DNA from: an uncultured Bacteroidota bacterium
GTDB taxonomy: Bacteria > Bacteroidota > Bacteroidia > Chitinophagales > LD1
Assembly (NCBI GenBank): GCA_903889265.1
Contig: CAISWS010000066.1
Coordinates: 604 to 64,603, forward strand
Length of the DNA stretch: 64,000 nt
Direction: 5' to 3'
Each line of letters begins with the position of its first letter. Position 1 is the stretch's first letter. Positions 2,577-60,584 of the stretch are shown here, one piece after another. The notes beneath the pieces were generated by a model. It saw nothing but the letters and a program-made list of their open reading frames with translations. It was not told the DNA's origin and made no database searches. The position numbers and the translations under genes were made by a program.

Positions 2577-2585
2577 TCTGAGCAC

Positions 2586-6925: not shown

Positions 6926-7002
6926 TGCACTTCATTTTCTTATCTATTGTTAACGAAAAGCGGTTGGCTGCAGGCCAACTTTGCACTATAAAAACAATAG
7001 AT

Positions 7003-7353: not shown

Positions 7354-7524
7354 AACACCGGGTTCAACATATTGCCATGTGTGACCCTGAAACACCGGCC
7401 GGGGTTAACTTACCGGCACCCCTTCTATGGCTTAACAGCAGCGTAGAGGATGGACAGGCACAACGAGATTAGGGAGAACTGTATTTGCTTTGCACCCAAT
7501 CCCGTTTATTTTCGCACCAACAAT

Positions 7525-41987: not shown

Positions 41988-42066
41988 TGAACCTGTATAG
42001 AAAACCAACTATGTGCAATACTTGTCATTGGCAGAGAAAACAGCCGGAGAATACAGGGTTAAATAA

Positions 42067-42630
42067 TTACAAAAGCAACTTTTCAATGGTTCGGGGAAAC
42101 CACTCATGCTCCAATACTTGCACTTTAAGAGCTATTGTTTCAGGCGTATCGCTTTTATCTATGGTTGTGGCCTTTTGTAAAATCACTTCGCCCTCGTCGT
42201 AATTCTCGTTTACAAAATGGATGGTAATGCCCGTTTCAGCGTCACCTTGGCTTAATACCGCCTCATGCACTTTTATGCCATACATGCCTTTACCACCGTA
42301 TTTGGGTAATAGGGCCGGGTGTATATTAATAATGCGTTGCGGAAAGCGCTCTAACAGATATGCAGGAATCAATTGCAGAAAACCTGCCAGTACTATCATG
42401 TCAATATTTAAAGCAGCTATAAGGCGCCCCAGTATTTCAGGGTCGTTCAGTGCATTCTTGCTTACAATAGCTGATATTATTTTGTTGCTGTGGGCAATTT
42501 TTATAACTCCTGCCTCAGGATTATTGGTAACCACCAAAGCAACATTTACTGATGGGTGGCCCTTAAAATATCCGATAATAGCTTCGGTATTGCTTCCGTT
42601 GCCGCTGGCGAAAATTGCAATGTGTTTCAT
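42067..42630 (-). CDS. purN: phosphoribosylglycinamide formyltransferase PurN
   Basis: MKHIAIFASGNGSNTEAII, INIHPALLPKYGG and the length (187 aa). Confidence 0.9.
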   Translation of the reverse strand: MKHIAIFASGNGSNTEAIIGYFKGHPSVNVALVVTNNPEAGVIKIAHSNKIISAIVSKNALNDPEILGRLIAALNIDMIVLAGFLQLIPAYLLERFPQRIINIHPALLPKYGGKGMYGIKVHEAVLSQGDAETGITIHFVNENYDEGEVILQKATTIDKSDTPETIALKVQVLEHEWFPRTIEKLLL

Positions 42631-42633
42631 TCC

Positions 42634-42727
42634 GTGTTCAGGTATTCAGGTGTTTAAGTGTTCAGGTAAAACGGGTGCAATGATACGCATAAACCTGCGC
42701 ACTTGAACACATGAACACCTGCGCACC
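42634..42727. repeat. 34-bp imperfect inverted repeat built from GTGTTCAGGT-like units
   Basis: The left arm (42634-42667) and the reverse complement of the right arm (42693-42727) match at 27 of 34 positions by hand alignment. It lies between the stop of the 1882-aa adhesin gene and the purN start, so it is probably the adhesin gene's terminator. Confidence 0.5.
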
Positions 42728-42734
42728 TTTCGCT

Positions 42735-45700: not shown

Positions 45701-48383
45701 CTCTTTCAATCCACAAGCCGCTGTTTAGTCCCCCTATAGTAAATATACCACCCGGTTCGCCGCTCGGTAACGGCCCATCGGCTCTGGCAACAATAAATAT
45801 GCTAAGTGAATTTTGGTCAGTGCTGCCATTCGGCCCCAGCCCGGCTATAGGGTTCCCCGTCATTACATTATTGTTGCCAAACTTAATTGAGGGCATATAA
45901 TTGAGTAAAGGAACCTGGTTTATAAACGTAGGCTCTGCAGCACCGGCAGCAGTGGCACTGTCATTGCTGGGGCTTTGGTCCATCCATTTAATTACATTAC
46001 CCCCGCTGGCAACAACGCCCATATCAGCCCTTAACCAAAATGCAATATTGCCGCCCGCAATATTAGCTGGTGACATTATATATACCGTGTCAAAGCCAAC
46101 TGATGAATTGGGTACGCCGCAGGGATTAACAGCACTTACCTTCCAGTAATAGGTTTGATTGCTGGCCAGGGTTACTTTTTTCTGGTTGGTATAGATATTA
46201 TAATAACTGCTGTCGGTTATTGGAAAAGAGGGGTCAGTCGACACAAAGAGGTCGTAATACAAAGCACCTGCAGATGATGCCCATTTAAAAGTAACTACCG
46301 TATCGGCTGAAATGGAGCCACTTGCCGGGAACTGAAGCACCGGTGCAGAGGGCACATTGGATGGCAGCTGCACTATAATACTATCAACACTGTCAATAGC
46401 CATACAGCCGTTTGCCTGTGTAATGGTGAGTCTAACATGAAAGGTATCAACCGAGCCATAGGTGAAAGAAGGATTAATAGAAGATGAGGTGTCAGTAGCC
46501 GTATTATCAAACTGCCAGTAATAACTACTTATGGTTTGCCCGGGCGCAGGAGCACTTAGGTTATCAAAAGTAAAAGTAATGGCATCGCAGGCTATGCTGC
46601 TTTGGTACGCGGCAGTTGGCAACGCATTAACAACCAGGGGAATTATGGAATCATTAACACAGCCATGGATGGTGTCGGTAACCGTTAATTTTACCAGGAA
46701 AGTGTCGGCTGCCAGATAATTATGAGATGCAAAACGGCCGGTTCCCGTGCCGCCATCGCCAAATGCCCAGGCATACTTTACGTTTACACTATCGGAATTG
46801 TTATAGGGGCTATAAGGCAGGCCCTGGCAAACCGGGGTGGTGGTAAAGTTTACATGCGGAGCCGTGCCTGCTATAGTTACGGTTACGCTGGCGCTGCCGC
46901 TGCAACCTATAGCATCAGTAACCGTAACTGAATATGCGGCCGGAGTGTTTACCCATATCAGGCTGTCAACACTGCCGGTCGACCATAAAAAATGTAACTG
47001 GTTCCAGGGTTCAACCGGTGTTACAAGGCTTAATCTATTACCCGAACAAAGCGTGGTAGCAGAGCCTAACGATACCGTGCTTTTAAAATTATCCACCGAT
47101 ACCACTTCAGCGTTTGTTGTTACCGAGCAGCTGGTATTTAATGCGTCCGTTACTACAACTTTATAAGTGCCGGCAACTCCTACTTTAATAGAGTCAGTGG
47201 TTTGATTACCAGGGTTCCATTTAAAAGTATAATTACTAAATGATGGCACATTGGGAACTAATTCAAGGCTATCGCCCACGCATACTGTTGCTGTTGGATT
47301 TAACGAGAGTGTGGGGAAAGTAACGGTAGTAGTATCGTATTGGTAGGCACCAAAAGCATCTTTAATGATTACCGAATAGGTGCCCGATGTGCTTACTGAA
47401 ATTGAATTTGTTGTTGCCCCCGTACTCCATGTATAAGAAACAAAACCCGTTGGCGCTGTTAAAGGCAATGCGCAAAGCCCATGGGTAATAGTGGTATCGC
47501 GCGGGCCAATATGCACAGTGGGCGAATATTTGGTTCCCAGATAGCTTTCTACCTGTGCAATTTGGGCTCCGTTTAAGCAAGTATCAAAAAGAATGATTTC
47601 GGCTATTTCGCCATTAAAGTAACCATCCGGAGAAGCATAGCCGGGAGAAAGTCCGATGTTATATGTGCCATTTGTGAATGTGCCGTTAACAATTGCCTGA
47701 TCCGAGCCGCTCAGTCCCGCAGTTGTTGTTGAGGTAACGGTGGAAGTATTAACATCAATTGCAGTGCTTTGGCCTTCAATTTTTCTTACTTCGAACATCT
47801 TATAAGTAGAAGTGCCTGTGCCACCCATACCAGATGAATTAGATAAATATGCTGTTGCTGGGTTTGCGGCATTATTATTCAGATAAAGCGCACCCAAAAA
47901 TGAAAGTCTTTCAAACCACCATCCCGGTACGTTACCCAACCCGTTTAAACTTCCTATCGTAAATATACCCCCGTGGTTTCCAGAGCTATTTCCATCAGCT
48001 TTACAAATGATGAAGGCATAAAGCCCGCAAATGCTTCCGTTATTGTTAAACTGCGTAATTTGCGGGCCGCTTAAAAAAGAAAGATTTGTGGTATTAAATT
48101 TAATCGCTGGTAGTCCATTGAGTGAATTACTGTTAACGGTAGGTTTGCTACCCACTGCACCTGTAGCATCATAGCCATTTCCACTCTGGTCGTGCCAGGT
48201 GGTCACCGAATCGCCCGGACCGTTTGTTACCACACCTACATCTGCTCTCAACCACAAAGTTAAACCCGGTATACCCGATAATGGCGACTGCGCAAATAAA
48301 TTGCAGACGGTCAACATTAAAAATGCTCCAAAAAACAACTTTCTTCTTAAACTCTTTAGCACCCTTTTGTATTTATAACTCAT
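42735..48383 (-). CDS. giant surface protein: 2 LamG-like modules, FN3-like, multiple PKD, CARDB and a T9SS type-A sorting domain
   Basis: 1882 aa with a signal peptide. Two paralogous modules end GYFNGEIAEIILFD...YLGTKYSPTVHIGPRD and GYLNGEIAEVIIFN...YLFNKYAPPVNLGPD. PKD signatures (..W.FGDG..S....P.H.Y...G.Y.V.L). CARDB-like LDIAVERVG...TTNNQNC. The C-terminus reads MPNPAITNALLGII...AEYYIRVRYNDDTE. Confidence 0.85.
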   Translation of the reverse strand: MSYKYKRVLKSLRRKLFFGAFLMLTVCNLFAQSPLSGIPGLTLWLRADVGVVTNGPGDSVTTWHDQSGNGYDATGAVGSKPTVNSNSLNGLPAIKFNTTNLSFLSGPQITQFNNNGSICGLYAFIICKADGNSSGNHGGIFTIGSLNGLGNVPGWWFERLSFLGALYLNNNAANPATAYLSNSSGMGGTGTSTYKMFEVRKIEGQSTAIDVNTSTVTSTTTAGLSGSDQAIVNGTFTNGTYNIGLSPGYASPDGYFNGEIAEIILFDTCLNGAQIAQVESYLGTKYSPTVHIGPRDTTITHGLCALPLTAPTGFVSYTWSTGATTNSISVSTSGTYSVIIKDAFGAYQYDTTTVTFPTLSLNPTATVCVGDSLELVPNVPSFSNYTFKWNPGNQTTDSIKVGVAGTYKVVVTDALNTSCSVTTNAEVVSVDNFKSTVSLGSATTLCSGNRLSLVTPVEPWNQLHFLWSTGSVDSLIWVNTPAAYSVTVTDAIGCSGSASVTVTIAGTAPHVNFTTTPVCQGLPYSPYNNSDSVNVKYAWAFGDGGTGTGRFASHNYLAADTFLVKLTVTDTIHGCVNDSIIPLVVNALPTAAYQSSIACDAITFTFDNLSAPAPGQTISSYYWQFDNTATDTSSSINPSFTYGSVDTFHVRLTITQANGCMAIDSVDSIIVQLPSNVPSAPVLQFPASGSISADTVVTFKWASSAGALYYDLFVSTDPSFPITDSSYYNIYTNQKKVTLASNQTYYWKVSAVNPCGVPNSSVGFDTVYIMSPANIAGGNIAFWLRADMGVVASGGNVIKWMDQSPSNDSATAAGAAEPTFINQVPLLNYMPSIKFGNNNVMTGNPIAGLGPNGSTDQNSLSIFIVARADGPLPSGEPGGIFTIGGLNSGLWIERGAGFAIINNYENNSALNHGSNPPILNDQAAMPAGAACPYHLYGVVKSYGSFARIDTNGVYDTVNYNYNTINFFYDSAFSLGHPAGLDPYSGNVPYGYLNGEIAEVIIFNTLLNPAEQAQVNQYLFNKYAPPVNLGPDIVQNYSLCPVTLRTGNRFVSYLWSTGATSDTLNVTQGGTYWVSAVDVFNHTSFDSIHVTLPYRGSNPDTLFVCHGDTGQMVQLINQPTSYTYNWYYSATAGGTYANLNINSNVIHPYKAGYYYTKISDASSCSIITPKIPLIIDTFYNVQVVPAYDTICKFGTLIINTVPYVIDSFLWSPMAFPMDTMSAPTIDSAGLYYLYTVDNKGCRNLDSAYVTTHAQAPVTNFTIPNLCLSNATYFQDLSVAAANDNINSYNWSYGGGIPSTDTTVNGQTSYRLDYGYGNYTVTLKITTDSGCIGIKTQHITILPSPNVGYIDSANNSLYPYILCAGSSSSAQFTDTSQAEGGSAITERIWKFNGAVNPDSAATIQYSFPQQGIYTVTLEVVNALGCADSVTEQIDVNPPFTAVFSNENHCLGDPTTFTDLTQSLSIVSRVWKFRENGDGPYAYSPTAQITYQQPGTYDVELQVENAIGCISTLNRQVKIVQKPLADFTNLPVCVNQAYAPIDSSFAYGDTLVQWSWNIGGNISHLPSPSVVFHTTGPESVSLTVKSSEGCVDSVTKTFDVAPVPTALFVFNPLYGSAPLQVTFSNRSSGATNFTWYFGDGNSVTTDSPYINPPAYTYNQNGDYNVVLYAYNNYGCFDSLSRLLTVLPTTLDIAVERVGTISVTQPDGSQLVTLTALISNVGTRIINSAQLYASLGGTGIMEQNWSGYLLSGQTILDTFPAQFVVPEGAGNTYVCVSARDVNGGEAEVDTTNNQNCASLTGNMQLAGPMPNPAITNALLGIILPQAGKVYISIIDELGKPVVPEASFNLPVGRTNYIIPVAQLQSAEYYIRVRYNDDTEVRSFVVR

Positions 48384-48725
48384 CCAATTTACTAAAAACC
48401 ACTTTAATATTAAAATTACGCCTTTATTAAGTCAATCCTTCCCTTTTATCACAAAAGGCGTGCATTGTAAATAACAGTCTATACCATTACGGGCATTTTA
48501 AGGAAATGTTCCATAAACAGGCCTGCAAAAGGCATAATTTGTGGGGGATATTACGACTTTAACCTTTTACCTTACTTCAATATTATAGCTTACAAACAGT
48601 AATAGGCCCTAAAAGCCGGGAATTTTTCCAACGCTGGTTTAAGTATGATTAATATATCGTACGGTTTTTGCAAAGCACAACCAGCGCCAAACACTCAGGC
48701 TATGCTTTTGCTAAGTAAAGTGTCA

Positions 48726-49973
48726 TCAACCTTGGATTCTCTTATATACCCCAAGGTAATTTTCAACCCCCGCAGCCAGGGAATAAACCTGTTGCGAGCG
48801 CAGCCGGATATAATCTTTATCGAATGATGTATTCAGCATTTTTTGAATGGCCTTTTCATATTCGGCAGTATTGAGTGTTTGAATAAGCACACCGGATTTG
48901 TCGTCAATAATATAATCCACGTCTCCTACACCTGCGTTACAAATATGAGGCATCCCCATGCCCATAATTTCGCCCTGCTTGGTAGGGCTGCTGGCTGATT
49001 TGGAGAAAACCGGTTTGATAAAAAATATAGAACACTGCGATAATGCCAGATAGGTGGGCACCTGTTTATGGGGTGCCGGGGTAATAATAAACAAAGCCTC
49101 AGGTATTCCTTTAATCTTTGCTTTGGTAAGAATGTCGCTGGCAGGTTCGCCGGTAATAAACAGGAACCGGGCATTTGGTTTAATCGTAAGCAGGCATTTA
49201 AAAAAGTCCAGCATTTCGTCCAGCATATACCAGGTACCTACGCTGCCCAGGTAGTTTAATACAAACTCATTTCCGGTTAAATTAAATTGCTGCCGCAACT
49301 GTTGCAATAAACCGGTATCAATACTCTTTTCCGAAAACAAATCAAGGTCGGCACAGCAGGGAATCACCTGTATGGGAATAGGTTGGTTTTTAATATTCTT
49401 CCAGCTGTGAATAATATCCCTGCCTTTTTTAGTGAGGCTGATGGTATAATCAGCAGTTGAAAGATACTGTTGTTCTTTGCGCTTAAAGAAATTGTATACC
49501 TGCTTAAACAAGGGGTTCGATAAATTCCAGATGCCGCCCTCTACCCGCTCATCAGCATAAAAACCGCGCATGTCAAAAATGAATTTAACACCAAATTGCT
49601 TTTGCATATCCATGCCCACCATAGCCGAAATGTAACTGCGGCAGTGTATGATTTTAAACTGCTTTTTACGGTGAAGGGCTAATGCAGTTTTTTTCATTTG
49701 CCTCAGGTCCCAGATGGTGGAAAGCACAGGTGGCTTTTTGGTATAAGGCAGGGGCACCCAATCTATATTGCTTTCTTTTAACAATACAGCAATGGTATCG
49801 CGGTTTTTTTCAAAACGTCCTTCTTTCTCAAAACTGATAAGTGTAAATGAGTACCCTGCTTTTGATAAGCCCTGCAAATAAGGGATTACCTGGCTTTGGC
49901 CCAATGGGTCAGTCATGCCATCATACGACAGATATAGGACGTTAGTTTGGGTTTCAGTTGGCCGCATGGTCAT
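48726..49973 (-). CDS. glycosyltransferase family 4
   Basis: 415 aa. N-terminal VLYLSYDGMTDPLGQSQVIPYL and a GT-B C-terminal half (GEIMGMGMPHICNAGVGDV). Overlaps the asnB stop by 20 nt. Confidence 0.8.
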   Translation of the reverse strand: MTMRPTETQTNVLYLSYDGMTDPLGQSQVIPYLQGLSKAGYSFTLISFEKEGRFEKNRDTIAVLLKESNIDWVPLPYTKKPPVLSTIWDLRQMKKTALALHRKKQFKIIHCRSYISAMVGMDMQKQFGVKFIFDMRGFYADERVEGGIWNLSNPLFKQVYNFFKRKEQQYLSTADYTISLTKKGRDIIHSWKNIKNQPIPIQVIPCCADLDLFSEKSIDTGLLQQLRQQFNLTGNEFVLNYLGSVGTWYMLDEMLDFFKCLLTIKPNARFLFITGEPASDILTKAKIKGIPEALFIITPAPHKQVPTYLALSQCSIFFIKPVFSKSASSPTKQGEIMGMGMPHICNAGVGDVDYIIDDKSGVLIQTLNTAEYEKAIQKMLNTSFDKDYIRLRSQQVYSLAAGVENYLGVYKRIQG

Positions 49974-51810
49974 TCATCCATTTATGAAGCAATATCAGCA
50001 CCCAAATCCGGTTGTACAGAAAATCCTCACCCTTCTCAAAGCGCGAAAGAAGTTGTTTTACCTTTTGCGGATGGACAACGCCATATTTAATAAGCAACTG
50101 CTCATCCAGGTATTTATCTATCAGATAGTGCAGGTCGGTTTTCAACCACTTGTACAAGGGGATAGAAAAACCCCATTTAGGCCTTTCGAAAAACTGACGC
50201 GGTACGTAATCGTACAGCACTTCTTTTAATAAGTATTTACCTACGCGTTCCTTCTTTTTCAGTTCTTCAGATAAATTCAACGCGAACTCCACTATGCGAT
50301 AATCCAAAAACGGCGACCGGGCTTCCAGCGAAAACTGCATGGTGGCAATATCTACCTTCACAAGCAGGTCGTCTTTTAAATAATACTTTACATCGTATAA
50401 GGCCTGCTCTTCGGCGGCGGAAAGTTTACGGTTCAGTTTGCCGAAGTTCTCATCAAATAAAATCTCAGCACCATAATCAGGCTTCACAATTTCATCCAGT
50501 TCATCCTCACTAAAAAAGTATTGCTCCTGCGAAAAAATGTGGCTTTTAATGCGTTGCCTGCTTTTAAAGTTAAAGACGCCTGCACCACGTTTGTAAGTAT
50601 TGCCCATTTGCGATAAAGCCATGGCAATTGGTTTGCGCAAGGTTTGCACAAACGGGTTGCTTAATCTGTTCGCCCAGTCATATGCACCATAACCCATAAA
50701 AAGCTCATCTCCCCCATCACCCGTTAGGGTCATGGTTACATATTTGCGGGCCAGTTTGGATACCAGCATAGTAGGTATGGCCGACGAATCAGCATAAGGC
50801 TCATCGTAAGCCACCATCATTTTATCAATCAGCTCCAGTGCATCGTTTTCAGTAACAATAAACTCGTGGTGTTGCGTGCCCAGGTGCTCTGAAACCTTGC
50901 GCGCATATTCCGATTCGTTAAACTTTGCTTCTTTAAAGCCAATGGAAAAGGTTTTTACCGGCTGGCTTGATATACTTTGTGCAATAGCAGTAACTGCGCT
51001 TGAATCAATACCCCCGCTTAAAAAGGTGCCAAAAGGCACATCGCTTATCATCCGGTAACGCACGGATGTGGTAAGTAACTCTTTTAATTCTTTTTTGGCT
51101 GAATCAAAATTGCCGGCCACTTGTGGCTTTAATTTTTCTTCCGGTTTCCAGTAACTGGTTATAGTAGTACTGTCGTTTTTAATTACCGCGTAGCTGCCTG
51201 CCGGCAACCGGTTTACCTGCTGATAAATAGTATGTGGCTCAGGTATGTAACCGGCATATAAAAACGTGCGCACCGCAGGTTTGTAAACACTTAAACTGCT
51301 TTTTACCTGCACCGGTTGTAGTAAAGATTTTATCTCCGAACCAAAAGCAAAGTTACCGCCTTCATTGTAATAATAAATGGGCTTTACGCCCAACCTGTCA
51401 CGGAAAAGATAAACGGCGTGCTCCTTAATATCGTAGATAGCAATGGCGAACATGCCATTGAGCAATTGAACAAACTCCACCCCTTTTCTCTCAAACGCTT
51501 CAAGTATAATTTCTGTATCGCTGGTAGTACGGGGATTAATATTCAGCTGCGCCTGTATTTCCTGAAAATTATAGACCTCGCCATTAAATACCATTACATA
51601 CCGGCCACTTTGCGAGTACATGGGTTGGTTTGCTGCTGCACTAAGGTCAATAATACTTAACCTTCTGTGCCCTAAACCGCAGGTTTTACCTGCATTCAGA
51701 TAGAATCCGGCGGCATCAGGGCCGCGATGCTGCATAGCATTGGTCATTTGCTGCAAATCAGCTTCGCTGAAAAACCTGGTGTTAGAATAAAAGCCTGCAA
51801 TGCCGCACAT
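49954..51810 (-). CDS. asnB: asparagine synthase (glutamine-hydrolysing) family amidotransferase, polysaccharide-cluster type (WbpS-like)
   Basis: N-terminal MCGIAGFY (Ntn Cys2), the PP-loop FLSGGIDSS, and the length (618 aa). Confidence 0.85.
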   Translation of the reverse strand: MCGIAGFYSNTRFFSEADLQQMTNAMQHRGPDAAGFYLNAGKTCGLGHRRLSIIDLSAAANQPMYSQSGRYVMVFNGEVYNFQEIQAQLNINPRTTSDTEIILEAFERKGVEFVQLLNGMFAIAIYDIKEHAVYLFRDRLGVKPIYYYNEGGNFAFGSEIKSLLQPVQVKSSLSVYKPAVRTFLYAGYIPEPHTIYQQVNRLPAGSYAVIKNDSTTITSYWKPEEKLKPQVAGNFDSAKKELKELLTTSVRYRMISDVPFGTFLSGGIDSSAVTAIAQSISSQPVKTFSIGFKEAKFNESEYARKVSEHLGTQHHEFIVTENDALELIDKMMVAYDEPYADSSAIPTMLVSKLARKYVTMTLTGDGGDELFMGYGAYDWANRLSNPFVQTLRKPIAMALSQMGNTYKRGAGVFNFKSRQRIKSHIFSQEQYFFSEDELDEIVKPDYGAEILFDENFGKLNRKLSAAEEQALYDVKYYLKDDLLVKVDIATMQFSLEARSPFLDYRIVEFALNLSEELKKKERVGKYLLKEVLYDYVPRQFFERPKWGFSIPLYKWLKTDLHYLIDKYLDEQLLIKYGVVHPQKVKQLLSRFEKGEDFLYNRIWVLILLHKWMNDHAAN

Positions 51811-51853
51811 AAGTCAGATGTTAGAAACAAGATTCAAAATCAGCGACTACAAA

Positions 51854-52822
51854 TTAGTCTTTTGCAAACGGATGGCCGGTTGCTTTTAATTTTGCAAAGG
51901 GGTGATAATCTGAGGTTAAACCTACCGGGGTTTGGTGCCTTATATCATGCGCAATGCGGATGCTGGGGAGGGCATCCTGAACGCCAAAGCCCTTGCCTTT
52001 TAATATTTCTTCATAACTGCGGGTATGCAAATCAGTAAAGCCATCGCTGAACTCTATTTCTTCCCCTTCAAGGGTCATAGAACGATAGGTGCGCATGCCC
52101 TTTTTCTTTGCAGCTTCGGGCAGCGTATCTGCATCAATGCTTAAAAACCACCTTACGCGTGCTTTGGCAAATTCAAGGTAACCGGCGGCACGGTCGTGTG
52201 TGTGAATGTGGACCACATTGCTTTTTACATCGCCAAAAAGCCAGTGCAGCATATCAAAAAAGTGAATACCTATATTGGTGGCAATACCGCCTGATTTAGC
52301 CGTTTCTCCCTTCCAGCTGGTGTAATACCAGCTACCCCGTGAAGTAATGTAAGTAAGGTCGAAATCGTAAATTTTATCCTCTTTGCTGTTATCAATCTTC
52401 TCTTTCAGTTTAAGTACATTGGGGTGCAGGCGCAACTGAAGAATGGTGTTTATTTTATGGCTGGTTTCTTTTTCCAGTTCTATCAGTGCCTCCGCATTCC
52501 ATGGATTAAGCACCAGCGGTTTTTCGCAAATCACATCAGCCCCGTTCCTAAGGCCAAACCGGATGTGCGAGTCGTGCAGGTAATTGGGCGAGCAAACCGA
52601 TACATAATTAACGCCGTTGCCTTTGCGTTTCAGCTTATCAATATGGCGGTCGAACCTTTCAAACTCAACAAAAAACGCGGCATCGGGGAAATAGCTGTCC
52701 ATAACACCCACACTGTCAAAGGGGTCATAAGCAGCCAGCAATTGGCTTCCGGTATCTTTGATGGCTTTTAAGTGGCGCGGGGCAATATAGCCAGCCGCAC
52801 CAATCAGGGCGAATTTGTTCAT
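51854..52822 (-). CDS. Gfo/Idh/MocA oxidoreductase, WbpB-like (UDP-2-acetamido-2-deoxy-glucuronate 3-dehydrogenase type)
   Basis: MNKFALIGAAGYIAPRHLKAIKDTG, VSVCSPNYLH, VICEKPL and TNIGIHFFDML. About 320 aa from ATG 52822. It closely resembles WbpB/WlbA-type enzymes as I recall them. Confidence 0.7.
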   Translation of the reverse strand: MNKFALIGAAGYIAPRHLKAIKDTGSQLLAAYDPFDSVGVMDSYFPDAAFFVEFERFDRHIDKLKRKGNGVNYVSVCSPNYLHDSHIRFGLRNGADVICEKPLVLNPWNAEALIELEKETSHKINTILQLRLHPNVLKLKEKIDNSKEDKIYDFDLTYITSRGSWYYTSWKGETAKSGGIATNIGIHFFDMLHWLFGDVKSNVVHIHTHDRAAGYLEFAKARVRWFLSIDADTLPEAAKKKGMRTYRSMTLEGEEIEFSDGFTDLHTRSYEEILKGKGFGVQDALPSIRIAHDIRHQTPVGLTSDYHPFAKLKATGHPFAKD

Positions 52823-52889
52823 ATTGCAATAATAGGAAAAAGCGTTGGTTCGGCTACTCCCGCCGGCACAATACAAGTTAGGGCTAACA

Positions 52890-54191
52890 TTATTTAGCAG
52901 GGAGTTTTTCGTACAGCAGGTTACTTAATATAAGGGCTTGCTGCTTTCGCGAATATTTTAAAGCCAGTTCATTCACTTCCGAATTCTTAATTATTCCTTT
53001 TTTAAAACTATCGTATTCGCTTTTCAGAAAGAAAGTTACTTCCGTTTTAGTATTCATCCCAACCCCGCCAGTAGTCTCTTTCAGTATATACTCTAAAATT
53101 CCATGGTCGTTTTCAACCAGCATTATCTTCCGCTTTACAGCCAGGTAATCAAACACTTTGGCGTTTAACCAATCAGCTCCTTTGCGCGATAGCAGAAGAA
53201 GCAAATGCGAGGCCCGCATTTTTTTAAGCAAATCAGGGTAAGGAATCCGTGGCCGGGCTATGATATATCCGTCTAACTCCTTTTTGTAATTCAACAGCCG
53301 CTTTTTTGCTTCGGCCTGCAGGTCAATGCCGTAAAAATTAACTTCAATTTCGCCTCGGCTGATTTTATTTTGGCTTATAAAATCCAGCAGCCCGTCAAGG
53401 AACATCTCCAGGTTTTGGTGGGGGTAAATAGTGCCGCCGTATGTAACTACAAACTTATCGGTTGGTGGCTTTATGTTTTCCAAACCCCCAAAATGGGCTT
53501 CGTCGTAACCGTTGTAAATAACCTCCACCTCTTTGTCAGGATGCAGATTTTTAAGCGAGGCGGCATAAGTTGGAGCGGCAGTGGTTATCAGCAATGCACT
53601 GGCAATGTATTTTTTCTCGCGGCCACGGTAAAATTTGTTTAGCTGGCGCTGTAAAAAGCCCTGTACGTAATTGCCCTGGTTACCGGTCCAGTTATCCCGG
53701 TAATCGGCAATCCACGGTATATTAAACTTGCTGGAAAGAGTACTTCCGTATTTAAAAAGAATAAAGGGTTCGCCGGTAGCTATAATTATATCAGGGCGGT
53801 TTTTTTTTATCTCACTTTCTGCCTCGCTATAAATAGAAGACTTGCTATCGAACAAAAAGGAGAGGTGTTCAGCAAAAGAATAAAAGTAGCTGAGCAATTT
53901 TCTAACCGGCGCAAGTTTTTGCATGCCGAACCGTAGCAGCAGCTTGTCGCGCAGGTTGGGAGAAAACCCTGCACGCAAAACTTTGGCACCGCTTTCGTTG
54001 ATTTCAATCACAACAGCCCGGGGCATTTCCTTAACATAATCAAGGGATGACGTTATGTGGCTATCCCATTGGCGGGTAATAACTGTAACCCCTATTCCGT
54101 TGCCGGGCAGGTAATTATACCAGCTAAAAGGGCGCTGACCCCCAATAGAAATAAGTGGGGGGAAGTCGTAAGCCAAAATCAACACCTTCAT
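52890..54191 (-). CDS. glycosyltransferase (GT-B fold, GT4-like)
   Basis: MKVLILAYDFPPLISIGGQRP N-terminus. 433 aa. Confidence 0.6.
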   Translation of the reverse strand: MKVLILAYDFPPLISIGGQRPFSWYNYLPGNGIGVTVITRQWDSHITSSLDYVKEMPRAVVIEINESGAKVLRAGFSPNLRDKLLLRFGMQKLAPVRKLLSYFYSFAEHLSFLFDSKSSIYSEAESEIKKNRPDIIIATGEPFILFKYGSTLSSKFNIPWIADYRDNWTGNQGNYVQGFLQRQLNKFYRGREKKYIASALLITTAAPTYAASLKNLHPDKEVEVIYNGYDEAHFGGLENIKPPTDKFVVTYGGTIYPHQNLEMFLDGLLDFISQNKISRGEIEVNFYGIDLQAEAKKRLLNYKKELDGYIIARPRIPYPDLLKKMRASHLLLLLSRKGADWLNAKVFDYLAVKRKIMLVENDHGILEYILKETTGGVGMNTKTEVTFFLKSEYDSFKKGIIKNSEVNELALKYSRKQQALILSNLLYEKLPAK

Positions 54192-54440
54192 ATCAGCCTA
54201 ATCAATTTTTACCGAAAGTATAGTAAGTTTTGTGCTGCCCAAAACAAGTTGCTACCAACAATCTGCCGGGTGAATCTGTTTGGATACAGTTGAATTAAGC
54301 CGCGAAATGGTATCTTGCCGGTCGGTTTTTTGATTACTACATTAAAACTAAATGACTATTCCCCGGGGTCAGAAGGGGATGGAGGATGCGCGGTTATCAA
54401 ATTAGCCTGTGAAGTTTATTTATAAAAAACAGATTGCAAA

Positions 54441-55724
54441 ATGCCGGTTTCTCAGAATACACTAATATTTTTTACCGACTCATTTCCATTTGGTACTTCA
54501 GAAACATTTATTGAAAACGAGTTTCCCTTTTTGGTTAATTCATTCGACCGGATTTTTATTGTAACCACCAACCTTACCGATGCCAAAACCAGGAAGATAC
54601 CTGGCAACATAGAGATACTGCGCATACTTTATAAACCATCGTTTAAATTTAAGGTTCTGTCTTTATTCAGCTATTTCAACCCTATTATACAAAGAGAAAT
54701 AGGGCTTATAAAAAATGAGTTTTTGCTGCAGCCCAATAAAGATATTTTATCGGTACTTCTTGCCAGTTACGCCAAAGCACTGGAAATAAATTCGTTGCTG
54801 AATGGGCTTGTTGCCAGGCATAAAATTGATTTGGCTGGCCTGTACCTATATAGTTACTGGATGAACGATATAACTGCCGGCGCTGCCCTTTTTAAACATA
54901 ACCATCCGGAAATTAAAGCTTTTTGCCGGGTCCACCGGTGGGATGTTTATTTTGAAACCCAAACCCCTCCATATCTGCCGTTACGTAATTTTATGATTGA
55001 AACGCTGGATTCGGTTTACTGTATTTCGCAGGATGCCTACGGTTACCTTTACCGCCTTTGCAACAACCGGCCAAAAGATCATTTAAGAATTTCACGGCTG
55101 GGCACCTTTAACCGCGATAATATTGTTGCCGTGCCCAACCAGGGTATGATACGCCTTATCAGCTGCTCAAACCTGATACCCCTCAAGCGGGTTTACCTGA
55201 TAATCGAAGCGCTGGCGCTCATTAATAATATTAAAATTGAATGGAAACATTTTGGAAAGGGCCCGCTGGAAACAGAACTGAAAGCCCTGGCAGCAGAAAA
55301 ACTTAAATCAAAACAAAATATTGATTACTCATTTATGGGGCAGATAAGCAATATGGAGTTGCTTGACTTTTATAAAAAAAACAATGTAGACCTTTTTATT
55401 AACGTAAGCGAAACCGAGGGCATACCCGTATCAATCATTGAGGCAAGTTCGTTTGGCATTATAGTTATAGGCACCCTGGTAGGCGGCGTGGGAGAAATAC
55501 TGGAGGAAGGTGAGAATGGTTTTTTACTTAGCCCAAGCTGTTTGCCGCAGGACGTGGCTAACGCCATTATAAAATTTTATGGAACGCCAGAGACAGAGAA
55601 GAGCCGGATCAGGGCCAATGCCATTTCCATTTGGCAGCAAAAATACAGCGCCCAAAAAAACTACACTGATTTTTTGAATTCAGTTATGAGTTTAAGTTCA
55701 GCCAAACCTGTAAAGCTGCATTAA
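54441..55724 (+). CDS. glycosyltransferase family 4
   Basis: The Ex7E region SETEGIPVSIIEASSFGIIVIGT..GG..E. 427 aa. Confidence 0.75.
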   Translation: MPVSQNTLIFFTDSFPFGTSETFIENEFPFLVNSFDRIFIVTTNLTDAKTRKIPGNIEILRILYKPSFKFKVLSLFSYFNPIIQREIGLIKNEFLLQPNKDILSVLLASYAKALEINSLLNGLVARHKIDLAGLYLYSYWMNDITAGAALFKHNHPEIKAFCRVHRWDVYFETQTPPYLPLRNFMIETLDSVYCISQDAYGYLYRLCNNRPKDHLRISRLGTFNRDNIVAVPNQGMIRLISCSNLIPLKRVYLIIEALALINNIKIEWKHFGKGPLETELKALAAEKLKSKQNIDYSFMGQISNMELLDFYKKNNVDLFINVSETEGIPVSIIEASSFGIIVIGTLVGGVGEILEEGENGFLLSPSCLPQDVANAIIKFYGTPETEKSRIRANAISIWQQKYSAQKNYTDFLNSVMSLSSAKPVKLH

Positions 55725-58142
55725 TTTAGTTATGTACTCCTCTATATCATATTTCTGTGCAAAGGCCAATGCACCGGCCGACAAGGCCGAATAAGTTTCT
55801 TTATCCTTTAGTACCTGTTCTATTGTATCGGCAAAATCCTCCGGGTTTTCATCCGTAAGCATATAGCCGTTTTGACCTTGTTGAATCAGGCTCCTGTTTC
55901 CTATTCCATCAAGGCTAACCACTGGTAACCCGCTTGCCATGGCCTCTAAAAGAACCAGTCCGAAGGGCTCGTGTTTACATACATGCACATAAACGTTTGC
56001 TGCTGCATAGTATTCCGGCATGTTACCTTTAGCACCGGGAAGGGATATAACCCGGCTGAGATTATTTCGTTCAACCTTTGCCTTAACGTTGTCGTGCTCT
56101 TCGCCTTTTCCCAGCAATACAACCTCTATCGTATGGCCCCTGTGCACCAGCACCCTGGCAATATCTACCAGCAACTGTTGGTTTTTTTGGGTGGTGAACC
56201 GTCCTACGTTGACTATACGGATTGTTTTAATATCCCTTTCTGCTCCGGAGCTCTGGTAATTTTTGACAACAATAGCATTGTCCAGCGGAAATATGTTTTT
56301 TCTTAGCTGGCAAGGTAAAACGGATTCAAAATAACTTGTTGTATCGTCAGAAATAGATATAAATTTATTGTTGCTCTTCAGGTAGCGTTTTACCAAATGG
56401 CGCTTTTCGAAAAAATCCGTAAAGAGATTTTTTCTGATTAGCGTGTTAAGTGAGAAATTGCGCAATTGAGGCATGTTGTCATGGCAATGCGAAAAGTATT
56501 TTATCCCTGGAAAAATAATTTCATGTGCCACCAGTTCGGAAAGGAAAAGGTGCGAATGGATTACGTGCGGCCTGAAGCTTTCAACCAAATCTGTGAACTC
56601 TCTTACATCAATATGATTCGGTTTAAACACTGAAAGGCCGACAGAGGAATTACACTCAAAAAAATCCGGGTTGTTGGATAAGGGCCCCTCAATACCAGGT
56701 ATTTCGTAACCGGTCTTACGCGCAGCTTTTTTAAGTGTTACCAGTTTTACTTTAATGCCGGGCCGGGTTTTCAGGGTTTTGTAAATATTTAATACCAGTG
56801 CCTCAGCACCACCGCTAATGGTCATACTATTTGTAATCAGCAAAATTCTTATATCCCGGATGGCAACTCCAACATCTTGCTTGTTATCCGTGCCAGATGG
56901 CAAGCGTTTTTTCTTACCCGCATTTACCGTCGATAGCCCAACCGGCAAAACCGCTTTGGGGGCAGTTTTGTATGTCCTTATAAGTTTGGTGATATATTCT
57001 TCAATGTCGTAATTTTTGGCAAATGCCTTAGCGTTTGCCGACATGGTTTGATACGTGTCTTTATTTCCTGTAACTTTCTCAATCGCATCGGCAAAGTATT
57101 CCGGGTTTTGTTCATAGATCATAAACCCTGTTTCGCCTTCATTAATCAGTTCCCGGTTTCCTTTGGCGTCCAGGCTTACAACCGGCAAGCCGCTGGCCAT
57201 GGCCTCTAAAAAAACCAGGCCGAAGGCTTCATGTGTACAGGTATGAACGTAGACGTTGGCGGAGGCATAATAATCAGCCACGTTAGACTTTGTTCCGGGC
57301 ATGGAGATAACATCCATCAGCTTATTAGCTTCTACCCTGGCCTTTACCTTTTCAAATTCGGGTCCATTGCCAAGCATAGTTACTTCTACCCGGTGCCCCC
57401 GCTGAACCAGCACACGGGCAATATCCACCAAAAGCTGCTGATTTTTGATGGGAATAAAACTTCCCACATTTATTAACCTGATAACATCCAGGCTTCTTTG
57501 TGTGCGGTTTATATCAAAGTTTTTAGTAACAATCGCGTTGGGCAGAGTTTGTATGTTTTTTTTTAACTCTTTTGGCAGTACATTTTCGAAATACTTGTGC
57601 GTGTCATCAGAAACCGCAATAAAGTTGTTGTTGCATTCAATGTACCTTTTTATCAGATGTCTTTTTTCGTAAAAATCGGTTAAGTGGTTTTTGCGGGTTA
57701 ATGTCTTTAGGGAAAATCTGCGCAGCTGCGGCATGTTATCATGGCAATGGGTAATATAGGTAATGCCTGGAAACACAATTTCATGAGCCACTAATTCAGA
57801 AAGGAACAGGTGCGAATGGATAACATTGGGCCTGAAGCTTTCTACAATATGGGTAAACTGGCTGACTTCCAGTTTATCACGATTAAGCACCGAAAAGTTG
57901 ATGGTGCAACGGATATCTGAAAAGTCCGGATCGCTGAGAAGTCTCTCCTTTAGTCCCGGAATTTCGAAACCGGTTGGAGAGCTTTCATTCTTCAGGGTTA
58001 CCAACCTGACTTTAATGCCTGGCCGGGACTTTAGCCCATAGAAAATGTTTAAAACCAATGACTCTGACCCTCCGCTGATAGATAGCGTATTGGTAATAAG
58101 CAAAACCCTTAACTCTTCTGTGTCCTCACCATCCACGACCAT
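55698..58142 (-). CDS. tandem-fused double glycosyltransferase family 4 (two complete GT4 modules in one polypeptide)
   Basis: 814 aa. Residues about 11-393 and 431-814 align end to end. Examples: FRPNVIHSHLFLSELVAHEIVFPGI vs FRPHVIHSHLFLSELVAHEIIFPGI, and HEAFGLVFLEAMASGLPVVSLD vs HEPFGLVLLEAMASGLPVVSLD. A linker of about 37 aa joins them. Confidence 0.8.
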   Translation of the reverse strand: MVVDGEDTEELRVLLITNTLSISGGSESLVLNIFYGLKSRPGIKVRLVTLKNESSPTGFEIPGLKERLLSDPDFSDIRCTINFSVLNRDKLEVSQFTHIVESFRPNVIHSHLFLSELVAHEIVFPGITYITHCHDNMPQLRRFSLKTLTRKNHLTDFYEKRHLIKRYIECNNNFIAVSDDTHKYFENVLPKELKKNIQTLPNAIVTKNFDINRTQRSLDVIRLINVGSFIPIKNQQLLVDIARVLVQRGHRVEVTMLGNGPEFEKVKARVEANKLMDVISMPGTKSNVADYYASANVYVHTCTHEAFGLVFLEAMASGLPVVSLDAKGNRELINEGETGFMIYEQNPEYFADAIEKVTGNKDTYQTMSANAKAFAKNYDIEEYITKLIRTYKTAPKAVLPVGLSTVNAGKKKRLPSGTDNKQDVGVAIRDIRILLITNSMTISGGAEALVLNIYKTLKTRPGIKVKLVTLKKAARKTGYEIPGIEGPLSNNPDFFECNSSVGLSVFKPNHIDVREFTDLVESFRPHVIHSHLFLSELVAHEIIFPGIKYFSHCHDNMPQLRNFSLNTLIRKNLFTDFFEKRHLVKRYLKSNNKFISISDDTTSYFESVLPCQLRKNIFPLDNAIVVKNYQSSGAERDIKTIRIVNVGRFTTQKNQQLLVDIARVLVHRGHTIEVVLLGKGEEHDNVKAKVERNNLSRVISLPGAKGNMPEYYAAANVYVHVCKHEPFGLVLLEAMASGLPVVSLDGIGNRSLIQQGQNGYMLTDENPEDFADTIEQVLKDKETYSALSAGALAFAQKYDIEEYITKLMQLYRFG
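55701..58112 (-). repeat. tandem duplication with a period of about 1263 nt (the two GT4 modules)
   Basis: Unit A is about 58112-56964 and unit B about 56852-55701. Protein identity is roughly 55-65% by eye. Confidence 0.75.
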
Positions 58143-58205
58143 TCAATTTACTTCAAATTTAAATCCCTTTGCCTGGTTTGCAACTTTTGTTGCCCTCTGG
58201 CAAGA

Positions 58206-59204
58206 TTACCCGGCAGTTTTTATAGCCGTAAATAACTGATTAAGGCAACTATCAACAGAATATATGCCATATCGCTTTTTAATGTTCGTATTATCCGGGG
58301 ATTCATTAAAAAGAAAATGATCAGCGGCTAACTGGATCTTGAGGCCGGATTGCCTGGCCGATTGAACCAACTGAGGGGTATAGGAGCCGTCGGGATAGGC
58401 AAGCTCCTGAATTTCATATTGCACCAGCGATTCTAAATATTTTTTTGACCTTACCAATTCATCTACGGCAACCTGGTGTGGTAAGCTCCCGAGGTTATTA
58501 TGGTAATACCCGTGTGAGCCAATTTTTATATAGGTTGAGTGAGATGTTTCGGCTATCTGCTGGTCGTTCATAAGCTGCCAGTATTCTTTCACTTCCATGT
58601 CATCCTGAAAATGAACATGGTTCGCAAAGGCTTCTTTTACCTTTAGCTTGTATTGGTAATCAGCCCTTTGATGCTTGATTATTTCGTAAATAGATTTGCC
58701 TGAGTCCTGCGAGAAATAGCAGTTACCTTGTTTCCGGAATGTTTCACCATCAATTTTTAACTCGGCGTTGGTAAGAGTGGTAGCTATATTTACAAAATCG
58801 GCCCATAGGATATTGTCATTAACCTCATTAAGGCCGGTGATAAAAAATGTAGCCGGGCACCGGTAATCTTCAAGTACGGGCTTGGCATTCAGGAAATTAT
58901 TAAGGTACCCATCGTCAAACGTAACAGCAAAATTTGGTTTGTCCGGGTCAAACTTTCCATCGGCAAAATCGGTAAGGCTGATAACCGAACAGTACTTTTT
59001 AAGAAAGGCTATTTGTTTACGAAAACAAACAATGCTGGCATGCCTGCTGTTAAACCGCGTACTTCCGGTTTTTGAAACGCCATGATACATCAGGATATAA
59101 TTACCAGATATTTTTTTGGCAATGATACCGCCTAATACCGATCCGGCCACCTGCTCGTTGGCAATACGTTTTACTTTTGAAAAAATTTTGGCGGCAATGG
59201 GCAC
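58206..59204 (-). CDS. polysaccharide deacetylase (NodB-homology) family protein
   Basis: The FAVTFDDGYLNN motif, followed by ATFFITG. Confidence 0.75.
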   Translation of the reverse strand: MPIAAKIFSKVKRIANEQVAGSVLGGIIAKKISGNYILMYHGVSKTGSTRFNSRHASIVCFRKQIAFLKKYCSVISLTDFADGKFDPDKPNFAVTFDDGYLNNFLNAKPVLEDYRCPATFFITGLNEVNDNILWADFVNIATTLTNAELKIDGETFRKQGNCYFSQDSGKSIYEIIKHQRADYQYKLKVKEAFANHVHFQDDMEVKEYWQLMNDQQIAETSHSTYIKIGSHGYYHNNLGSLPHQVAVDELVRSKKYLESLVQYEIQELAYPDGSYTPQLVQSARQSGLKIQLAADHFLFNESPDNTNIKKRYGIYSVDSCLNQLFTAIKTAG

Positions 59205-59269
59205 TTTGTAATTTTATAAAAGTCAGATAAGTGAGCTTTAATCCTGCAGGCAACATTGCCTTTTAATTT

Positions 59270-60199
59270 TCAGATAGTACGCGACAGCAAGGCTGTTTTT
59301 ATTCGCCATAGCTCATCCCTAAACCGAACCTTACTGGTGCCCGGTTTTGATAAGATATACCTGGCATAATAAACCAGGAACTTAACAGGGCTGTGCTTTC
59401 GCAAATAAATAAGTGCGAGCTCATGATACTCCCACCACAGATTTTTTAAAGAATCGTTATACTTAAAATTAAGATACTCATTCATTGCCTTTGTTGTAGA
59501 AACTCCGCTGAGCAGTATGTTTTCTTCGTTTTTTGCATCAAACGCAGCACCGGCGTGCCGCCGGTAAGCCAGGCTTACAATATCAATATATCCGGCTTTG
59601 CCTCTCCTTAACTGCAAAACGTGCAATACCCAGTCCCAATTAATTGAAGAATACATCCAGTTGGGAAATACCGTGGGCTGATCGGCTTTTCTGAACATTT
59701 TGGTATTGTTTGGAATGAGGAGATGATACCGCACATAAGAATCGAGATCAATTTTGGGTAGTGGTTGTTGTGCTGGAGTAAAGAAAAACTCTTTCCTGGA
59801 AGGCTCATTTTCGTAAAAGATATACCCGTTGGTATAACAGATAACGCAATCTGCATTCTGATCCAGATAATCGGCCTGGGCCTGCAACTTATGTTCATCT
59901 GACCAAAAGTCATCGCCCTCCATGATGGCAATATACTGACCCGCACAAGCATTTATGGTGGCCAGCGCGTTTTTTACCATGCCTATGTTCTTTTCCATGA
60001 AAACCGGTTTTATTAACCCGGGGTATTTCAAAGCGTAGTCCGCAACTATTTCGGGTGTCTTGTCAGTAGAACAATCATCCGAAACCACTATTTCAACGCC
60101 AAAATCTACTACCTGCTTGACGATTGAATCTAAACAGGCAGCGATATATTTCTCATGGTTATATGTAATCAGGCTAACACTAACCTTAGGCGGAATCAT
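59270..60199 (-). CDS. glycosyltransferase family 2
   Basis: VSVSLITYNHEKYIAACLDSI, VSDDCSTDKT and EGDDFW (DxD). Confidence 0.85.
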   Translation of the reverse strand: MIPPKVSVSLITYNHEKYIAACLDSIVKQVVDFGVEIVVSDDCSTDKTPEIVADYALKYPGLIKPVFMEKNIGMVKNALATINACAGQYIAIMEGDDFWSDEHKLQAQADYLDQNADCVICYTNGYIFYENEPSRKEFFFTPAQQPLPKIDLDSYVRYHLLIPNNTKMFRKADQPTVFPNWMYSSINWDWVLHVLQLRRGKAGYIDIVSLAYRRHAGAAFDAKNEENILLSGVSTTKAMNEYLNFKYNDSLKNLWWEYHELALIYLRKHSPVKFLVYYARYILSKPGTSKVRFRDELWRIKTALLSRTI

Positions 60200-60495
60200 T
60201 AGCCAAATCTAAATATTTTCAAGCCAGTACCAAATTGCTCAGGTATTGAAAATAGTTGTATGGATGGGCCATTTAAGATGTCTAAACTACTCCTTCAAAA
60301 GGTGTTCATACAATCCGGCTTTTAACTGATGGTCATAATATGAAATGGCCACTACTTAACTTCGCAGGAAGGTTACAGAACCTTCATTTTGCCCAAAACC
60401 CGTAAATAATTGAGGCTTAGCTACTCTTGATTTAACAATTTACCGGAAGGCGAGATAAAAATGACCGAATGGCACGAAATTTAACCAGCTACTTG

Positions 60496-60503
60496 TATAT
60501 TTG
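60496..60503 (+). promoter_or_regulatory. candidate Bacteroidota -7 promoter box for the Gly-rich adhesin gene
   Basis: TATATTTG fits TAnnTTTG and lies about 80 nt upstream of ATG 60585. Confidence 0.3.
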
Positions 60504-60584
60504 CAGGCTGCCAAAAAACATTGCGTACAATGAATAATTCGGCGGCGTCTTTATTTGATTAGTTAAAACAGAATTAATAGCGAT

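Follow-up and report, generated by a model that had tools for sequence, protein, structure and literature searches.

The 64,000-nucleotide (nt) stretch of DNA analyzed here, hereafter the window, is part of contig CAISWS010000066.1 (GCA_903889265.1) from an uncultured Chitinophagales bacterium (Bacteroidota), and it carries an island of eight open reading frames (ORFs) for glycan assembly between two genes that encode secreted surface proteins. The island is a real, incomplete surface-glycan assembly locus, vertically inherited and made up of two conserved modules, and very probably it contributes a diamino-uronamide residue derived from the Wbp pathway to a lipid-linked oligosaccharide. The leading specific reading, to which we assign a probability of about 0.4, is that the island builds the linker glycan by which type IX secretion system (T9SS) cargo is anchored. 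This reading draws on the families of the encoded enzymes, the orthology of one of them with WbpB, the conservation of the gene core, the presence of VimA- and VimE-like genes in related loci and the linkage of the island with a cargo gene encoding PKD repeats. From these observations we infer the identity of the sugar, its lipid-linked route of assembly and, with the greatest reserve, its use as a cargo anchor.

The conserved core and the second module

An earlier note on this DNA, made from the sequence alone, had described eight consecutive coding sequences for glycosyltransferases (GTs), a WbpB-like dehydrogenase, an AsnB-type amidotransferase and a NodB-type deacetylase. The coordinates of all eight ORFs and their Pfam and NCBIfam domains bore this description out, with some corrections. 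The count of seven GT modules had to be lowered to six, in five proteins, and the left operon, which had been placed at 52890 to 48726, was found to be longer. Because the gene for a GT-B glycosyltransferase (52890–54191) also lies on the minus strand, 13–67 nt upstream of wbpB, the left operon comprises four genes (54191 to 48726, minus strand). The right operon contains three genes (60199 to 55698, minus strand), and the remaining gene lies between the two operons.

The dehydrogenase is encoded on the minus strand (ORF 51854–52876) and contains a Gfo/Idh/MocA domain. It is 56% identical over 311 residues to WbpB of Pseudomonas aeruginosa (PDB 3OA2; E = 2.9e-112) and also matches PDB 3O9Z (E = 1e-102), so that the term WbpB-like understated the case: judged by sequence similarity, it is a genuine WbpB orthologue, with UDP-2-acetamido-2-deoxy-glucuronate 3-dehydrogenase as its predicted activity. 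Translation probably starts at the ATG at 52822 rather than at 52876 (coding sequence 51854–52822), which gives a length of 322 aa, the same as in all orthologues and in the gene calls on metagenome contigs. The next gene of the operon (49954–51810, minus strand) encodes an AsnB-type, WbpS-like glutamine-dependent amidotransferase, in which an Asn_synthase domain (E = 1.5e-97) is accompanied by GATase_6/7 and the N-terminal catalytic Cys2 is retained. Its top NCBIfam family was TIGR03108 (eps_aminotran_1), with 518.9 bits and E = 2e-155, the cutoff of 816.9 not being reached. This family includes WbpS/PGN_1234 of Porphyromonas gingivalis, WbpS of P. aeruginosa and WbqG of Escherichia coli O121 (PMC7468200), and the island enzyme is predicted to turn a uronic acid into a uronamide. 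The amidotransferase ORF overlaps that of a GT4 glycosyltransferase, called GT4a here (48726–49973, minus strand; Pfam Glyco_transf_4 and Glycos_transf_1). The top NCBIfam match of GT4a, TIGR04063 (stp3), was far below its cutoff, and nothing was found for this protein in a sequence search against PDB.

To place these genes in context, 80 loci around AsnB orthologues (AsnB identity 94–51%) were compared, with one genome per species; individual loci are cited below by L numbers. ORFs were called and clustered, and representatives were annotated. The closer loci come mostly from Chitinophagales metagenome-assembled genomes. WbpB was present in 31 of the 80 loci and was directly followed by AsnB in all but one of these (30/31), while AsnB was directly followed by a GT4a orthologue in 33 loci, with overlapping reading frames in 26. 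By this recurrent gene order, WbpB-AsnB-GT4 is a conserved core in the Chitinophagales. Its divergence is about as slow as that of purN and purH (in L006, the identities are 81% for WbpB, 77% for AsnB, 81% for purH and 65% for purN), which marks the core as ancient and vertically transmitted, in contrast to the usual hypervariable O-antigen cluster. No compositional sign of recent horizontal transfer was seen in the island, which has a GC content of 41–44% against 41–50% (mostly 42–46%) across the remaining window. Exact matches to the window sequence were found in metagenome assemblies only.

The other genes belong to the second module. The GT-B protein or a divergent relative (c5) is encoded in 33 of the 80 loci, and the opposite-strand GT4 in 24, with its orientation kept. 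Since the triad GT4-GT4(opposite)-GT-B is present without WbpB and AsnB in the cultured Chondrinema litorale, the island is a combination of two modules. The GT-B protein, encoded by the first gene of the left operon, has 433 aa, of which Pfam detects the N-terminal Glyco_transf_4 half only (E = 1.8e-7). It has more than 1150 homologues, those with names being called glycosyltransferase, and it gave no match in a sequence search against PDB. The only plus-strand gene of the island (54441–55724) encodes a GT4 enzyme (Glycos_transf_1, E = 6.5e-20) and stands alone, with 249 nt between it and the divergent left operon; it converges with the double GT4 gene, whose 3′ end it overlaps by 27 nt. The double GT4 (55698–58142, minus strand) is a fused tandem duplicate with two full GT4 modules according to Pfam; its halves share 61% protein identity and 67% DNA identity, and single-module orthologues, the usual form in the relatives, occur in 13 loci.

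Upstream of the double GT4 gene is that of a CE4 (NodB-type) deacetylase (58206–59204, minus strand; Polysacc_deac_1, E = 1.3e-18), in which the TFDDG and H-x-x-x-H motifs are kept. The protein has no signal peptide and therefore probably acts on a cytoplasmic precursor. Its orthologues, with 44–70% identity, were found in L005, L007, L008, L085, and L086. A 784-aa CE4-GT4 fusion is encoded in L008 (3919–6273), which constitutes a Rosetta-stone link between the deacetylase and the GT4 of the double-GT4 type. The first gene of the right operon (59270–60199, minus strand) encodes a GT2 glycosyltransferase (Glycos_transf_2, E = 7.4e-25) and is lineage-specific, being absent from L005 and L085.

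The island is incomplete in that several functions of a glycan locus are missing. Pfam and NCBIfam scans of ORFs of at least 150 aa, on which the negative statements for the window rest, agreed with the earlier note that no flippase, polymerase, exporter, initiating transferase, aminotransferase or acetyltransferase is encoded there: neither Wzx, Wzy, Wzz, Wza/Wzc, an ABC exporter, and WbaP/WecA nor a DegT aminotransferase or a sugar acetyltransferase was found in the window. A contig of the same species extends about 6 kb beyond the SprB-repeat adhesin gene that borders the island on the right, and none of these genes was found in this extension either. It encodes a phosphoesterase, an unknown protein, a protein of the metallo-beta-lactamase fold, an Omp85 protein and a TonB-dependent receptor.

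In the relatives, the core is joined by further genes of the kind that make linking sugars in oral bacteria. A gene for a UDP-GlcNAc 2-epimerase (Epimerase_2, E = 2e-102) lies directly upstream of WbpB in 13 of the 80 loci. Seven loci encode proteins of the FemAB family inside the island; TIGR03019, the family that VimA itself matches (PMC7468200), is their best or nearly best match, with E about 1e-11 and thus under the cutoff. The order in L010, L012, and L016 is methyltransferase, FemAB, CE4-like, GT-B, epimerase, WbpB, AsnB, and GT4. By enzyme family, the run FemAB-CE4-GT corresponds to VimA, VimE, and VimF, here joined to Wbp genes.

Cargo genes on both sides of the island

The left operon is followed, after 342 nt, by a gene (42735–48383, minus strand) for a secreted protein of 1882 aa with a signal peptide, PKD repeats (PKD_4, E = 1.9e-45) and a divergent T9SS type A C-terminal domain. 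The match of this protein with TIGR04183 reached E = 3.8e-4 only, under the family cutoff. Its C-terminus can be aligned with the type A sorting domains found in other cargo encoded in the window, and it matched a locally built hidden Markov model (HMM) of the C-terminal domain with E = 4e-31, in support of its previous description as T9SS cargo. On the right, separated by 385 nt and transcribed divergently, is the gene for a Gly-rich SprB-repeat surface protein (60585–64000, plus strand; SprB repeats, E = 4.4e-50), which is cut by the window end. Both of these intergenic lengths had been given correctly before. On the same-species contig the gene is complete and encodes 1248 aa, with a Por_Secre_tail type A domain at the end, so that the SprB repeats previously attributed to it are upheld and its description as a giant adhesin is not. 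By these domain assignments, both neighbors of the island belong to the type A cargo of T9SS, which PorU processes in oral species. Ahead of its SprB repeats, the right-hand protein is extremely Gly-rich over its N-terminal ~350 aa (60585–61700), with GGxGG and AGG runs.

Twelve loci have a PKD orthologue downstream of the island, collinear from the signal peptide onward, and in two more a shorter PKD relative with a very similar sorting domain stands there. Six arrangements could be distinguished. The PKD gene may stand directly after GT4a and before purN; it may be preceded by an inserted FemAB gene, or by an inserted gene for a 2OG-oxygenase, in which case purN is missing; six opposite-strand genes may intervene, or seven or eight others, of which the annotated ones are glycan-related; and in L085 a DegT gene intervenes. 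The spacer between GT4a and the PKD gene, 342 nt long in the window, has 43 nt in L006, L007, and L055, and ranges from 24 to 43 nt across these three loci, L012 and L022. As to whether the adhesin-island-adhesin arrangement is conserved, a check that had been proposed in the earlier note, the order SprB cargo, island, PKD cargo recurs in two further lineages, L005 and L085 (AsnB 85–86% identical), where SprB-repeat orthologues of 65–67% identity occupy the same divergent position. The SprB flank is kept in the closest lineages only.

One possible meaning of this proximity is that the GT4 enzymes, being cytoplasmic, attach sugars directly to one or both of the adhesins prior to their export, in the way of SdgA/SdgB or GtfA/GtfB with the repeat adhesins of Gram-positive bacteria. 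The short distance of 43 nt in three of the relatives would fit with this, and the GT4 modules do match the SdgA/SdgB and GtfA models, with 153 and 102 bits, respectively; these scores, however, are far below the cutoffs (800 and 575) and typical of any GT4. Moreover, Ser-Asp or Ser-rich repeat tracts are missing from the adhesins, the GT triad of Chondrinema litorale has no adhesin neighbor, and the tailoring enzymes WbpB, AsnB, and CE4 point to the assembly of a lipid-linked glycan. We regard direct glycosylation as very improbable.

A candidate anchor glycan and its alternatives

The comparison with oral bacteria is the basis for considering a cargo anchor. As had been stated in the earlier note, and in agreement with the literature, T9SS cargo of P. 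gingivalis and Tannerella forsythia is tied to lipopolysaccharide (LPS) through an N-acylated diamino-uronic acid made by the Wbp/Vim pathway, in one case a uronamide (PMC7468200). 2-N-seryl-3-N-acetylglucuronamide and 2-N-glycyl-3-N-acetylmannuronic acid serve as the linking sugars, and the enzymes are WbpA/B/E/D, the AsnB-type WbpS, the CE4 enzyme VimE and the FemAB-type VimA (PMC7468200). The anchor of P. gingivalis is one pentasaccharide linker (A-LS), present in a single copy on an ordinary O-polysaccharide and built by WbaP, GtfC, GtfF, and VimF together with a shared Wzx, Wzy, and WaaL (PMC13086638); a module without its own flippase and polymerase therefore has a precedent. The tethering chemistry has been described in three oral species only, with linking sugars that differ (PMC7468200, PMC11969387), and the anchoring mechanism in environmental Bacteroidota has been described as unknown (PMC11611037).

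The island shares with the Wbp/Vim systems of P. gingivalis and Tannerella forsythia the WbpB dehydrogenase, an AsnB enzyme whose nearest family is eps_aminotran_1, a CE4 enzyme that may correspond to VimE, and GT4 enzymes. Its relatives add the VimA-like FemAB protein and the 2-epimerase, as in T. forsythia. Also common to both are a module without a flippase or polymerase of its own and many type A cargo proteins in the organism. The differences are that the genes are scattered in P. gingivalis and clustered here, that a VimA-like gene, WbpA, WbpE, WbpD, and WbaP are not encoded in this island, and that there is physical linkage between the island and particular cargo genes.

If the island does make a cargo-anchoring linker, WbpB, the WbpS-type amidotransferase and the translationally coupled GT4 (module B) would supply and install the Wbp-pathway sugar, a 2,3-diamino-2,3-dideoxy-hexuronic acid that is converted to the uronamide. 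WbpB would oxidise C-3 of UDP-GlcNAcA, and WbpA, an aminotransferase and an acetyltransferase encoded elsewhere would complete the nucleotide sugar. The AsnB-type enzyme would amidate C-6, and the cytoplasmic CE4 enzyme would strip an N-acetyl group, leaving an amine exposed. Module A, consisting of CE4, the (double) GT4, the opposite-strand GT4, GT-B and the lineage-specific GT2, would build the remainder of a short oligosaccharide on a lipid carrier, while genes outside the island would be needed to initiate the chain, flip it and ligate it to lipid A-core or O-chain. The product would be destined to become a linker or terminal oligosaccharide carried by LPS, with an amine-bearing sugar as the acceptor of type A cargo via the PorU sortase. 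Such an anchor would be the Chitinophagales counterpart of the P. gingivalis Wbp/Vim pathway and A-LS linker, and the two flanking type A cargo proteins would be among its clients.

A number of observations weigh against this interpretation, beginning with the missing parts of the pathway. WbpA, WbpE, and WbpD were found neither among the window ORFs of at least 150 aa nor beyond the right flank on the same-species contig. Nor did the window show an initiating transferase (polyprenyl-phosphate sugar-phosphate transferase), a FemAB/VimA-like gene or, by tblastn, a 2-epimerase of the WbpI type. The fetched flanks of L004, L005, L007, L008, L055, and L085 contained no FemAB/VimA-like gene, 2-epimerase, WbpA/E/D or initiating transferase, and WbpA, WbpE, and WbpD were not recognised in any of the islands examined. 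The DegT genes of the relatives are QdtB-like or WecE-like, not WbpE-like. In addition, the matches with TIGR families are all far below the curated cutoffs, and the CE4 enzyme of the window had no match to the PEP-CTERM deacetylase subfamily of NCBIfam. Nor does T9SS anchoring require the Wbp/Vim pathway, since Prevotella intermedia has a different linking sugar and is without WbpB, WbpD, VimA, and VimE (PMC11969387).

The linkage with cargo genes is subject to similar reservations. purN lies 21–108 nt past the PKD gene and is thus equally tightly linked to it, so that the close and collinear arrangement may stem from common descent and not from function. In roughly half of the loci that have the core, no PKD gene lies within 10 kb. 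Once the PKD orthologues are set aside, type A cargo showed no enrichment near the core (3/16 within two genes), as measured with the locally built C-terminal-domain HMM, which detected the domain in 24 of 1060 ORFs. A general anchor would, moreover, serve many cargo proteins, and linkage to a single cargo gene is accordingly not required by the model.

Further evidence of the same tendency comes from relatives in which the genes stand in more ordinary surroundings. Genes for a Wzx flippase, a QdtB-like aminotransferase and a formyltransferase adjoin the island in L016. In L010, L016, and L018, GT4a is followed by a Wzy-like multi-pass membrane protein and then a GT2. Distant AsnB-GT4 pairs (L056, L078) sit among Wzx, methyltransferases and Acyl_transf_3. 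The earlier note had stated that orthologous islands inside complete wzx/wzy or ABC-type loci without adhesin neighbors would speak against its proposal, and in these five loci this is partly what was found. Multi-pass membrane proteins after GT4a, the Wzy candidates, occur in L020 and L023 as well as in the three loci named, and have no Pfam or NCBIfam match; other genes that follow GT4a in relatives include those for GT2 and LPG_synthase_TM-type proteins.

These surroundings are what would be expected if the island were a fragment of an ordinary locus for an LPS O-chain, a conserved ‘common antigen’ or an exopolysaccharide (EPS), with a 2,3-diacetamido-uronamide in the repeat and the adhesin genes as mere boundaries, like galF/gnd in enterobacteria. 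It was in O-antigen synthesis that WbpB and WbpS were originally defined (PMC7468200), the genes between the core and the PKD gene vary as in a typical glycan locus, purN shares the tight linkage, and genes for T9SS cargo are frequent here, the window having at least five. Among known systems, the Wbp/Wlb pathway of P. aeruginosa and Bordetella (UDP-ManNAc(3NAc)A; WbpA, B, E, D, I, with WbpS/WbqG for the uronamide) resembles the island in the 56% identity of WbpB to the P. aeruginosa enzyme, the adjacent AsnB-type amidotransferase and the WbpI-like epimerase of the 13 relatives. The genes of that pathway, however, lie together inside a complete Wzx/Wzy O-antigen cluster, whereas the island has no WbpA/WbpE/WbpD and no export or polymerization genes. 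Against an ordinary LPS or EPS fragment are also the conservation of the core across an order at a housekeeping-like rate, the lack of a polymerase, flippase or chain-length gene in the 64-kb window and beyond its right flank, the position of the PKD orthologue, kept through six arrangements of which some have lost purN, and the occurrence of FemAB and CE4 beside WbpB/WbpS in relatives, which is the exact enzyme set of the linking sugar. We consider such a fragment quite possible, if short of probable.

The EPS loci associated with XrtA/PEP-CTERM (TIGR03108, TIGR04063, TIGR03088, TIGR03019) are related to the island in that they provide the top families of AsnB, GT4a and the double GT4, as well as the best or near-best family of the FemAB proteins in relatives. 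For these loci, Veith et al. have proposed that an aminoacyl sugar is made that acts as a sortase acceptor (PMC7468200). The island differs from them in its scores, which are far below the cutoffs, in the absence of an exosortase from the window and of a PEP-CTERM protein, and in the sorting system of the host, which is T9SS.

A third possibility is that the island makes the outer, species-specific portion of the general protein O-glycan of Bacteroidota, which is added at D(S/T)(A/I/L/V/M/T) sites on many exported proteins and would include the flanking adhesins among its acceptors. The O-glycosylation cluster of T. forsythia contains asnB, wecB (2-epimerase), wecC, GT4/GT1/GT2, methyltransferases and wzx, and its glycan contains a ManNAc-uronamide (PMC6120980). 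The likeness thus extends to asnB, the 2-epimerase and methyltransferases, which the relatives of the island have as well, to GT-B and GT2 transferases and, as proposed for the island, to a uronamide glycan on surface proteins. Sequons of this kind number 31 in the PKD protein (16.5 per 1000 aa), compared with 0–7 per 1000 aa in cytoplasmic proteins of the window; other Ser/Thr-rich T9SS cargo encoded in the window has them at a similar density, however, and the figure is therefore not specific. The T. forsythia cluster has wzx, wecC, and nonulosonic-acid genes, of which wzx and wecC are absent from the window, and it is without WbpB, FemAB, and CE4. WbpB (leading to a 3-keto and then a 3-amino sugar), FemAB, and CE4 all fall outside the described O-glycan clusters (PMC6120980). 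An O-glycan role is, on balance, unlikely.

The proposal of the earlier note, that the island anchors or decorates the adhesins rather than making a classical O-antigen or capsule, is consequently sustained in part. The conserved WbpB-AsnB-GT4 core, the FemAB genes in relatives, the PKD linkage and the recurring layout speak for it, and the pathway genes missing here and the Wzx/Wzy-like genes in relatives against. A bolder version, which we find doubtful, is that the core and its companions are the first recognisable gene cluster for a T9SS cargo-anchoring glycan outside the oral Bacteroidales, clustered, inherited within the Chitinophagales and coupled to a giant type A cargo gene, and that in this lineage without FemAB the sugar amine exposed by CE4 would itself be the sortase acceptor instead of an added amino acid. 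Should the island build a cargo anchor, the Wbp/Vim logic might extend across the phylum, and a compact candidate locus with two flanking type A cargo genes would be at hand in the Chitinophagales. Should it be an ordinary LPS or EPS fragment, it would show that glycan loci can be split into conserved modules with the machinery encoded elsewhere.

Intergenic regions and additional observations

The spacer between GT4a and the PKD gene (48384–48725, minus strand) contains only a weak 5-bp hairpin (48617–48605). The previous statement that no convincing terminator is present is consistent with this, and carries little weight because terminator-like hits were no commoner than in shuffled sequence (24 in the scan of 42000–61000 versus 21.6 ± 4.4). 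The TAnnTTTG motif was not found in this spacer either, which is uninformative because the 249-nt divergent region is also without it. Sequence blocks of the spacer are conserved with L004 and L005. In L004 (10018–10670), the spacer has an extra insertion of ~310 nt with G+C-rich inverted repeats, possibly a small mobile element. The 385-nt divergent control region on the right (60200–60584) has one Bacteroidota-type TAnnTTTG motif per strand, at 60496 (+) and 60211 (−), both of which are consensus matches only. A scan for sigma-70 promoters gave counts equal to those of shuffled sequence, and nothing was found in an Rfam scan of the window.

The PKD protein contains two copies of a domain of ~260 aa (LWLRAD...GEIAEIIxY...YL..KYAP), at aa ~36–290 and ~775–1030, without a Pfam match. 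A profile of the N-terminal domain gave a marginal PDB match (E = 0.019) with an arabinanase-associated domain, and the duplicated domain may be a lectin-like jelly-roll.

Three candidates for missing Wbp enzymes were rejected. The gene clusters c45, c46, and c47 (groups of homologous ORFs) of relatives had been considered as WbpD/WbpE; two of them proved to be HisH-like and HisF-like, and the third (384 aa) was without a Pfam match. The gene c24, which adjoins Wzx in L016, was nearest to QdtB, and the DegT gene of L085 was nearest to a WecE-type 4-aminotransferase, rather than to WbpE. HisH-like and/or HisF-like genes, together with the Pfam-less 384-aa gene, are located in or beside the island in L010 (18700–21290), L026 (6459–8400), and L035 (6100–8600). 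By homology, they could suggest an amidotransferase set for an acetamidino sugar (WbuX/Y/Z-type). A second AsnB-like protein, of about 666 aa, is encoded in L010 and L018. Inside the island of L005, a lineage without FemAB, a 547-aa fusion of ATP-grasp and low-molecular-weight phosphatase domains is encoded (5849–7492), which, from its domains, might be an alternative ligase.

Elsewhere in the window, ~30 kb from the island, there is a PMT_2 (ArnT-like GT-C) gene (16572–18143). Similar GT-C genes adjoin the island in L033 (19929–21395) and L034 (8897–10432), in the latter directly upstream of the PKD orthologue. A 523-aa membrane protein with a rhomboid domain (22846–24417) is encoded between two type A cargo genes (19835–21577 and 24451–25815). 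The window also contains a DUF1800/DUF1501 gene pair and a gene for a 612-aa PGA_cap (CapA-like) protein (831–3863 and 11807–13645), and in L086 a PGA_cap gene was observed near the GT-B/CE4 cluster.

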